A stretch of DNA of 64,000 nucleotides from Eledone cirrhosa (lineage: Eukaryota). The translations under genes and the position numbers were made by a program. The DNA is taken from assembly GCA_964016885.1 (NCBI GenBank), contig OZ024756.1, positions 38,564,001 through 38,628,000 on the forward strand. Direction: 5' to 3'. Each line of letters begins with the position of its first letter. Position 1 is the first letter of the stretch. Shown here piece after piece: positions 30,726 to 32,868 of the stretch. The notes below the pieces were generated by a model. That model had not been told where the DNA came from, searched no databases, and was given only the letters and a program-made list of their open reading frames with translations.

Positions 30726-30851
30726 GCGGTGACATTGTTTTTGGGCCTGCTTATCCTGTGCCTGTCTATGGTGATCGTGTATTTTCTAAACAACCGTTCG
30801 GACATCATCTTCCCAACCACATCGCCTTTCCCTAGTGTTCACGATGGCTAA
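30726..30851 (+). CDS. NCSTN: Nicastrin terminal exon 15A: TM helix + tail (AVTLFLGLLILCLSMVIVYFLNNRSDIIFPTTSPFPSVHDG*)
   Basis: TTTTACTTGCAG acceptor, phase 0, TAA stop; aligns with the nicastrin TM/tail pattern TL..G..I...S....Y......D..F; isoform 712 aa. Confidence 0.9.
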   Translation, partial: AVTLFLGLLILCLSMVIVYFLNNRSDIIFPTTSPFPSVHDG

Positions 30852-30887
30852 AATAACCCGCAATTTTCACAGCTAGGCTTGATTCTT

Positions 30888-30922
<35 letters not shown>

Positions 30923-30989
30923 TATTTGCATAGGCATGTATTCCTTCTTCTTCAACTTAACTCCACTTACCACTCACATCCACTGCTAA

Positions 30990-31395
30990 CACAGTGTCAA
31001 TGTTATTGTTATTGATGTTGCTGTTGTTGTTATTACTGACATCATTGTTGTTGCTTCTGCTGTTGTTGTTGTTCCTGACATTGTTGTTGCTTCTGCTGCT
31101 GTTGTTGTTCCTGACGTTGTTGTTGCTACTGCTGTTGTTGTTGTTCCTGACATTGTTGTTGCTACTGCTGTTGTTGTTGCTTCTGCTGTTGTTGTTCCTG
31201 ACATTGTTGTTGCTACTGCTGTTGTTGTTGCTTCTGCTGTTGTTGTTCCTGACATTGTTGTTGCTTCTGCTGCTGTTGTTGTTCCTGACATTGTTGTTGC
31301 TACTGCTGTTGTTGTTCCTGACATTGTTGTTGCTACTGCTGTTGTTGCTTCTGCTGTTGTTGTTGTTCCTGACGTTGTTGTTGCTGTTGCTGTTA
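30990..31395. repeat. (TTG/CTG)n-based minisatellite with recurring TTCCTGACA anchor
   Basis: Starts ~140 nt after the exon 15A stop. Confidence 0.9.
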
Positions 31396-31549
31396 CCATT
31401 ACTTATTTGTATAGTTTTACTGTGTAAAGTATGTATATGCATATTTATTATTACTATTAGTATTTTATATATATATATATATATATATTGTTATATTTGG
31501 GGAGGGTCATATTTCATATAAAAAACCTCGCAAAACTAATTCATCGCCG

Positions 31550-31585
<36 letters not shown>

Positions 31586-31894
31586 ATTGTTTCTACTTTA
31601 GGCACAAGGCCAGTAATTATCCAGTGCATTACTGGTACTTTATTTTATCGACCCCCGTAAGGATGAAAGGCAAAGTCAACCGGATTTGAACTCAGATCGT
31701 AAAGGGACGTAACTATGCTGGAAAGCATGGCGTCCGACCCTCTACCGATACTGCCAAATGATAAATGTGAAGACTAAAATCCAATCAGGGCTCGATTAGG
31801 ATAAATATATATCAAATATATAAGAACCGTAGAACAAATATTTATTAAAATAACAGATTAATCTGTTATTTTAATAAATATATATATATATATA

Positions 31895-31932
<38 letters not shown>

Positions 31933-32311
31933 TTACAAACGAGTTACGTTCCAAGAGACCGGTTGTTAGTTAATTTGTTTGTTAGTTAATCGTCTAACAC
32001 AGTACATACCAGTAAGTCCATGTATATTACATTGATACTGCAGGTTTCCATATGTGATATAGATATATATACAGTATATAGAGGTATATGTAACATGTGA
32101 TAATGAATATATATATATGTGTGTGTGTGTGCATGTATATATAAATAAATATATATTTACCATCATTCCATTGGTATACATCTATTATGCAATCTACATC
32201 TGAAGATGTCACTAGGTTCTTACATAACCTGGCCACTGAAATGTACATAGTGTTTGCAGAAATAAATAATTAAGGAAATTCAACATTTTTTAGCTCCTGT
32301 AATTTCACTTT

Positions 32312-32395
<84 letters not shown>

Positions 32396-32730
32396 CGAGC
32401 GACACACGGTCTCCCGACCAATACCGCATCAAATGGAACAAAACTGTCTAGCCTATGCTAGCGTGGAAGATGGACATTAAACGATGATGATGATATATAT
32501 TTATATATGTATAGTAAGTCCCCAACTTACAAATGAGTTACGTTCCAAGAGGGCGTTTGTTAGTTGATTTGTGCACTTAATAATAATAATGATAATGAAA
32601 TTATTGTGTACAGTGCTCAGGTGCACTGCAACTCATGAAAGGTGCATGTATAGTGTGTTAGTCATGATATACAGTATATGAACTTATATATGTTTTTCTT
32701 AAATTTTAATTGTTTTTCTTCTTATTGCAG

Positions 32731-32868
32731 ACTCTCATTTTATTGCTGGGTATCATCATCTTTGTGATCTCTTTGGTTGTGGTCTATGTGTTTGTTGAGA
32801 AAGCCGATATTATTTTCGACGCTGCTTACAAACACTACTCACATGGGCTGGAACCTCTACACACCTAA
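32731..32868 (+). CDS. NCSTN: Nicastrin alternative terminal exon 15B: TM helix + tail (TLILLLGIIIFVISLVVVYVFVEKADIIFDAAYKHYSHGLEPLHT*)
   Basis: TTCTTCTTATTGCAG acceptor, phase 0, TAA stop; retains G, SL.V.Y and KAD..F as in vertebrate nicastrin; isoform 716 aa. Confidence 0.88.
   Translation, partial: TLILLLGIIIFVISLVVVYVFVEKADIIFDAAYKHYSHGLEPLHT

Follow-up and report, generated by a model that had tools for sequence, protein, structure and literature searches.

Tandem last exons encode two membrane anchors for nicastrin in Eledone cirrhosa and other molluscs

The nicastrin locus and its two last exons

The stretch analyzed here, a 64,000-nt window of contig OZ024756.1 of Eledone cirrhosa to whose positions all coordinates refer, carries on its + strand the gene for nicastrin, a subunit of the gamma-secretase protease. 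The gene has two homologous tandem last exons, 15A (proximal) and 15B (distal), which stand in equal phase after one donor and each encode a transmembrane (TM) helix with a tail (Table 1). The first-pass annotation, made from the letters alone, had described two phase-0 acceptors after the donor at 29732, each with TGCAG, an intact open reading frame and a TAA stop. This description was borne out, the translated peptides being identical to those it gave, and the frames of 15A and 15B were open to stops at 30849–30851 and 32866–32868, respectively. The two isoforms of 712 and 716 amino acids with one ectodomain, also proposed there, were recovered with a spliced model of exons 1–14 built from tblastn matches of Octopus, Argonauta and decapodiform nicastrins. 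This model comprised 2013 nt with all introns GT-AG, and the predicted proteins, 712 amino acids when ending in 15A and 716 when ending in 15B, contained no internal stop.

The protein encoded by exons 1–14 was identical to Octopus nicastrin at 557 of 671 residues (83%). Octopus nicastrin in turn matched PDB entry 5a63_A (E 7e-125, residues 26–701), and Pfam PF18266 and PF05450 were present on nicastrin matches, so that by homology the window ectodomain is a full-length counterpart of human nicastrin. Within the model, exon 1 had the lowest certainty (tblastn E 0.04); its donor, GTTCGT at 17547–17552, is weaker than the other donors of the gene.

Table 1. Nicastrin features in the window, with the evidence used to place them.
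Feature	Position	Strand	Description	Evidence
Exons 1–14	17486..29732	+	Signal peptide and ectodomain, 671 codons, common to both isoforms	tblastn and spliced model
Exon 14	29629..29732	+	Ends in phase-0 donor CAG/GTAAGG serving both last exons	
Last exon 15A (proximal, type A)	30726..30851	+	TM helix and Ser/Thr/Pro-rich tail without tyrosine; TGCAG acceptor, phase 0	
Last exon 15B (distal, type B)	32731..32868	+	TM helix and basic tyrosine-bearing tail; TGCAG acceptor, phase 0	
Putative 3' untranslated region (3'UTR) of 15A	30852..31878	+	Rich in simple repeats; first ATTAAA at 31844, AATAAA at 31873; end inferred	Motif scan
Likely long 3'UTR of 15B	32869..34909	+	AATAAA at 33964 and 34866; end inferred	Motif scan and contig pieces of run X4

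Among the first 30 residues, 15A and 15B shared 12, and 44 of the 90 underlying bases. Agreement was 25/30 at second, 13/30 at first and 6/30 at third codon positions, a contrast between second and third positions that is expected when duplicates are old and selection has maintained a hydrophobic helix. The strand was also scanned with a TM profile (a BLOSUM column score containing Octopus homologues and excluding the window's own exons). Among 658 AG-led open stretches of at least 30 codons on the + strand of the window, 15A and 15B were the sole scorers (65.6 and 56.8, the next best reaching 8.5), and no third nicastrin TM exon was found. In a search of the 3.0 Gb assembly the DNA of 15A had a single match, and contigs of three DNA-like runs from one sample covered the exon with zero differences within it. 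Gene duplication or an assembly artefact as the source of the two anchors was ruled out, there being one nicastrin locus and DNA contigs that match it.

Comparison with relatives indicated that both copies have been conserved over a long time. The peptide of 15A was identical to Octopus isoform X1 at 34 of 41 residues and to a decapodiform assembled protein at 22 of 41. Over the first 30 residues, 26 were identical to Octopus for 15A and equally for 15B, the latter compared with isoform X2, so that each last exon is as conserved in this comparison as the ectodomain. The proposal of an old exon duplication with both copies retained was thus upheld. The search with the 15A peptide had found isoform X1 in a cluster holding X1 of type A and X2 of type B from O. 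vulgaris/sinensis and O. bimaculoides, and type A-like ends occurred in RefSeq models of three Octopus species. The models of proteins P0008 (O. vulgaris) and P0010 (Sepia pharaonis) leave exon A early into different sequence, which is probably an annotation artefact or cryptic splicing.

Upstream of nicastrin and head to head with it, open frames on the - strand at 10900–14260 outline a protein kinase gene, which we take from its motifs to resemble the checkpoint kinase CHK1. The two start codons are about 3.2 kb apart, and a promoter common to both genes is possible.

Transcripts and occurrence in other animals

Four runs matched this stretch, none of them recorded as RNA. Run X4 was treated as RNA-like because it contained a spliced contig, 2347 nt long, whose consecutive pieces lay on exons 12, 13, 14 and 15B; exon 14 is therefore spliced to 15B in Eledone cirrhosa. 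Base 1678 of this contig record corresponded to coding base 1660, which would fit the full gene model with an 18-base leader. Pieces of X4 contigs on 15B and its 3'UTR spanned 32728–33008, 33323–33538, 33592–33961, 34501–34622 and 34701–34909, of which only the first was continuous with coding sequence. None of the X4 contigs covered 15A, a result from the contigs of one spliced run and one sample that is not proof of silence, since contigs drop rare forms. At 33719, 33720 and 33726, probably within the 15B 3'UTR, an X4 contig showed clustered A>G differences that were absent from DNA run X1. The cluster fits A-to-I editing, and allelic differences would also be possible, X4 being another sample.

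For type A, evidence of expression came from relatives. Two nicastrin clusters were of decapodiform type, one containing Sepia pharaonis and the other assigned by similarity; 15 of their 17 members reached the last exon, and all 15 carried type A. Logan assemblies supplied 14 of these 15 proteins, full or partial, and the contigs measured 2 to 4 kb, implying spliced transcripts in squid- and cuttlefish-like relatives. Squids and cuttlefish, whose proteins were all A while the single spliced octopod run was B, may have lost type B or use it rarely. Evidence that the two exons serve as alternatives in transcripts comes from molluscs as a group: splicing to 15B was seen within Eledone, type A in assembled proteins of relatives and in the Octopus models, and both types in annotated pairs from other molluscs, while a 15A contig was missing from X4.

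These pairs showed that the first-pass annotation, right about the pair itself, had underestimated its spread. In all 18 same-species pairs of mollusc isoforms, taken from 13 protein clusters, the sequences agreed completely through the end of exon 14 and diverged right after it. They represented 13 genera in four classes (cephalopods, gastropods, bivalves and a chiton), with X1/X2 models in Octopus, Haliotis, Patella, Mytilus, Mizuhopecten, Mercenaria, Ostrea, Littorina, Physella, Biomphalaria, Gigantopelta and Liolophura, and two models in Sinanodonta. Both types were found in 13 of the 17 mollusc clusters examined, which is not a phylum-wide rate, because most clusters had been picked for having at least two members or an isoform label. 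The four clusters with one type were Argonauta (one member), the two decapodiform clusters and a two-member cluster of type B. Single models of Aplysia, Pecten, Solemya and Lottia had one type each. Whole-gene duplicates occur too, as Bradybaena (P0056, P0075) and Babylonia (P0059, P0071) each had two nicastrin proteins on separate contigs.

Outside the molluscs, a second anchor was found in none of eight clusters (two of Branchiostoma, and Asterias, Patiria, Acropora, Mixophyes, Strongylocentrotus and ticks), in which the C-terminus was common to the isoforms; their X1/X2 forms had the same anchor and differed in the N-terminus or in internal segments. Five annelid and nemertean nicastrins formed one-member clusters. 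A metagenome scan gave 17 nicastrin loci, none close to cephalopods, of which 16 were examined (L020 was omitted, its length and match being the same as those of L019). Ten of the 16 (L019 and L021–L029) read into the TM segment without an intron, so that an intron-based route to two anchors is closed there. Six had the intron, and three of these ended before any TM exon. In the bivalve-like locus L018 the first TM exon after the same donor was of type A, and its contig ended 1.4 kb past the stop. Animal loci L015 and L017, with the same intron, had one TM exon each and no second one in the following 5.1 kb and 2.4 kb, respectively.

Two exon types and their origin

The sorting of last exons into two types was analyzed with 14 pairs, taking one Mytilus pair of five and one Octopus pair of two and including the window. 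With whole ends, 79 of 91 comparisons favoured matched over crossed pairing (53 of 65 across classes), and 76 of 91 did so when only the first 30 residues were used (52 of 65 across classes). The best of 8192 label-free sortings was the one given by the A/B labels, for whole ends and first 30 residues alike, and when support was drawn from other classes only, it was positive for all 14 pairs, cephalopods included. The tails separated the types as well, with a tyrosine in 12/14 type B and 0/14 type A tails and Arg/Lys in 13/14 and 2/14, respectively, although such counts are not independent, because the species are related. The tail pattern serves as a separate check, since the first 30 residues alone yield the A/B sorting. 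In the larger of two trees, from which Argonauta was left out and in which the Paralvinella row was shortened, A required 4 and B 5 changes, compared with 11.7 for shuffles, and in 0/14 species were the A and B ends sisters. The A exon was proximal in both loci seen, the window and L018.

Taken together, the sequence comparisons suggest that a single tandem duplication probably took place in the mollusc stem, before the classes split. The split of the chitons is more than 500 million years old. Type B, with threonine first, basic residues and a tyrosine near the end, looks like the ancestral end, as it resembles that of amphioxus and vertebrates, and type A looks like a copy that lost the tyrosine. 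Two annelid ends carried Cys5, typical of type A, and two nemertean ends had threonine first, as in type B (P0095, P0120, P0047, P0048), which hints weakly at a duplication older than the molluscs.

An alternative history, in which the duplication occurred more than once, for instance separately in cephalopods, or was pre-molluscan and then lost or left unannotated in annelids and nemerteans, is doubtful, although part of the evidence leans toward it and away from a single stem event. Scores on the TM core lay close together, at 60.5 for the same type across classes, 57.1 within species and 55.2 for the opposite type. A smaller tree placed cephalopod A and B together with support of 29, and in it the split of A from B was not rejected (p-AU 0.48). 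In the larger tree, three annelid ends fell among A and two nemertean ends among B. Trees on about 40 columns are weak, with A and B needing 3 to 5 changes, and do not resolve the origin. Matched pairing was not favoured in 12 of the 65 cross-class comparisons, six of which involved cephalopod rows. Against this alternative history stand the label-free sorting and the leave-own-class-out support, both of which include the cephalopods, the lack of sister A and B ends within any species in the larger tree, and the proximal position of A in both the window and L018. It is also opposed by the single TM exon behind the intron in L015 and L017 and by the one-member clusters of all five annelids and nemerteans.

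Anchors, tails and the possible roles of the pair

In mouse nicastrin, TM residues T670, G674, S681, T685 and Y686 serve binding of APH-1 and Rer1 (PMC2064021). Mapped by spacing on the human alignment, these residues correspond to exon positions 3, 7, 14, 18 and 19. Glycine at position 7 was kept in 28/28 mollusc exons, serine at 14 in 26/28 and tyrosine or phenylalanine at 19 in 28/28. Thr3 occurred in 10/14 A and 5/14 B exons, and Thr18 (+15 Thr) in 2/28. Of the five face residues, 15A of the window keeps four (T, G, S, Y) and 15B three (G, S, Y). As judged from the alignment, the single C-terminal TM helix with a polar APH-1/Rer1 face (T, G, S, T, Y at 0, +4, +11, +15, +16) is thus retained in register and, in part, in residues. 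Since the face residues are mostly kept in both types, it is predicted, with high confidence, that both isoforms enter complexes with the one APH-1 and presenilin. For the same reason, a different choice of partners by 15A and 15B is unlikely. Genome searches found one locus each for APH-1, presenilin, PEN-2 and nicastrin, which are lower bounds, presenilin having an extra, weak and intronless-looking match elsewhere in the genome.

Known systems help to place the architecture. In Drosophila Dscam1, alternative use of the duplicated TM exons 17.1 and 17.2 directs a single ectodomain to dendrites or axons; these exons are internal and mutually exclusive, with a common tail and 3'UTR, whereas the nicastrin exons are terminal and swap tail and 3'UTR too. 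LAMP2 is closer. It is listed with a C-terminal tandem exon duplication in a human catalogue (PMC8373072), and LAMP-2 variants that exchange TM and tail are distributed differently between cell surface and lysosomes, the tails determining the distribution (PMC2136218). Like nicastrin, vertebrate LAMP2 is one type I glycoprotein gene whose tandem-duplicated 3' exons (A/B/C) each encode a TM helix and a short tail. However, LAMP2 has three such exons, all with a G-Y-X-X-hydrophobe signal, while nicastrin has two, with a tyrosine in one type and no common sorting consensus, and a protease of four subunits cannot assemble without the nicastrin helix. A canonical tyrosine sorting signal of the LAMP2 kind was absent from most nicastrin tails, although the tyrosine itself was present in most type B tails. 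Among human tandem duplicated exon substitutions (UHP regions), 77 of 236 exchange the C-terminal region, in many cases a TM helix, and the majority are of ancient origin (PMC9741552). The nicastrin event differs from that class in having been seen, among the samples used here, only in molluscs, and NCSTN, APH1A and PSEN1 were absent from the supplement table of the catalogue that includes LAMP2 (PMC8373072); NCSTN was likewise missing from the main texts (PMC8373072, PMC9741552).

In humans, six gamma-secretase complexes arise from PS1/PS2 and APH-1aS, APH-1aL and APH-1b, nicastrin not being counted as variable (PMC4285130, PMC2647162). Mammals and molluscs would be alike in forming several complexes from interchangeable subunits, with the difference that in Eledone one locus was found for presenilin, APH-1 and PEN-2, and the variable piece is the nicastrin anchor. 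The idea of a splice-encoded route to distinct complexes has to be narrowed accordingly, because such a route already exists in humans through the two C-terminal splice forms APH-1aS and APH-1aL (PMC4285130, PMC2647162), but not through nicastrin. As to the suggestion that the arrangement was undescribed, no prior description of duplicated nicastrin last exons was found in the literature covered, which took in a review of Notch in invertebrates (PMC10970066) but neither subscription journals nor most supplements. The RefSeq X1/X2 models of molluscs have the same junction and the same two end types, but they are automatic, and the X1/X2 number does not track type. The exon architecture is therefore already known from LAMP2; what appears to be new is its occurrence in nicastrin, across molluscs, where the isoforms sit unremarked in RefSeq.

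The reading that we favour, with moderate confidence, combines one old tandem exon duplication with two forms that would both assemble and whose tails and 3'UTRs would likely govern the place, time or duration of protease action. The choice of last exon would be coupled to 3' end formation. Exon 14 would be joined to 15A, which would have to be cleaved and polyadenylated before 15B is used, or else to 15B; candidate poly(A) signals are given in Table 1 for each exon. The distinct tails and 3'UTRs may then set location, timing or turnover of gamma-secretase. For the tails in particular, a role in sorting or turnover has about an even chance. It is the best guess because the type-specific signal is strongest in the tail, and by analogy with LAMP-2 and with the AP-1 motif of PSEN2, which sends its complexes to late endosomes and lysosomes (PMC6547588).

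Several observations speak against a sorting role of this kind, or against general use of both forms. A YxxPhi motif was found in 3/14 type B tails, in 0/14 type A tails and in neither window tail when the 14 pairs were checked, and 15B of the window lacks a terminal tyrosine. Nicastrin lacking the intracellular domain can still restore gamma-secretase activity to mouse fibroblasts, and the same study found no endoplasmic reticulum export motif in nicastrin (PMC8302450). A type B end was found in none of the 15 decapodiform-type proteins extending to the last exon. The RefSeq XP isoforms are predictions whose read support is not visible. Two narrower proposals for the tail were rejected: a universal YxxPhi signal, and a role in COPII export, which is argued against for mouse nicastrin (PMC8302450). 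In heterobranchs, type B tails (Aplysia, Lymnaea, Physella, Biomphalaria and Bradybaena; P0053, P0055, P0056, P0057, P0164, P0195) end in a conserved Y-[SN]-P-M of the YxxPhi type.

The dispensability of the tail for bulk activity in fibroblasts (PMC8302450) would suit a role at the level of RNA, in which the exons are kept because their differing 3'UTRs and poly(A) sites restrict expression to particular tissues or stages or localise the mRNA, the anchors being interchangeable. Tails that vary widely in length and sequence inside each type agree with this, and so does the finding of B only in one spliced run and of A only in decapodiform assemblies, which fits regulated choice. We nevertheless regard it as improbable, since protein features persist by type in four classes: besides the tail tyrosine, Thr1 was present in 11/14 B and 0/14 A exons, and Cys5 in 0/14 B and 7/14 A. 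A difference residing in the helix, through Rer1 retrieval, APH-1 affinity, lipidation or lipid preference, could alter the amount of mature complex or its cutting, and it draws on the assembly-critical N-terminal part of the TM in mammals (PMC2064021, PMC4285130), on the loss of rescue when the nicastrin TM is swapped for an unrelated helix (PMC8302450), on differences between types at positions 1, 3, 5 and 9, and on the four and three Rer1/APH-1 residues kept by 15A and 15B. With Leu4, Gly7, Ser14 and Tyr/Phe19 common to both types, an unclean split of Thr3 and no consistent type difference in mean hydropathy, this explanation appears quite improbable. Finally, 15A might be a silent relic in Eledone cirrhosa, with 15B alone in use, as the lack of a 15A contig in the single spliced run and of a canonical poly(A) signal in the roughly 990 bases after its stop could be taken to indicate. 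This is very hard to reconcile with an intact frame and acceptor, with 34/41 identity to Octopus, at the same rate as the ectodomain, and with type A as the sole form among decapodiform proteins, and contigs from one sample drop rare forms.

The favoured reading, of one old duplication with tails and 3'UTRs setting the action of the protease, can be extended, tentatively and at somewhat less than even confidence, to two gamma-secretases that molluscs would have kept for about 500 million years through exchange of the nicastrin anchor, without duplicating presenilin or APH-1. One form with a tyrosine in its tail and one without would then act in different compartments (surface and endosome, or axon and soma) on different substrates, e.g., Notch and APP-like proteins. 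If true, this would be a solution convergent with the PSEN1/PSEN2 split, and the first natural evidence of the nicastrin tail, dispensable in fibroblast assays, as a sorting device.

Nicastrin has been regarded as a fixed subunit of gamma-secretase, with a tail without an assigned role. The mollusc anchor pair, kept across four classes and present in a genome in which one presenilin and one APH-1 locus were found, offers a natural experiment on helix and tail, and provides an isoform marker for Notch and APP processing in cephalopod and Aplysia neurobiology.
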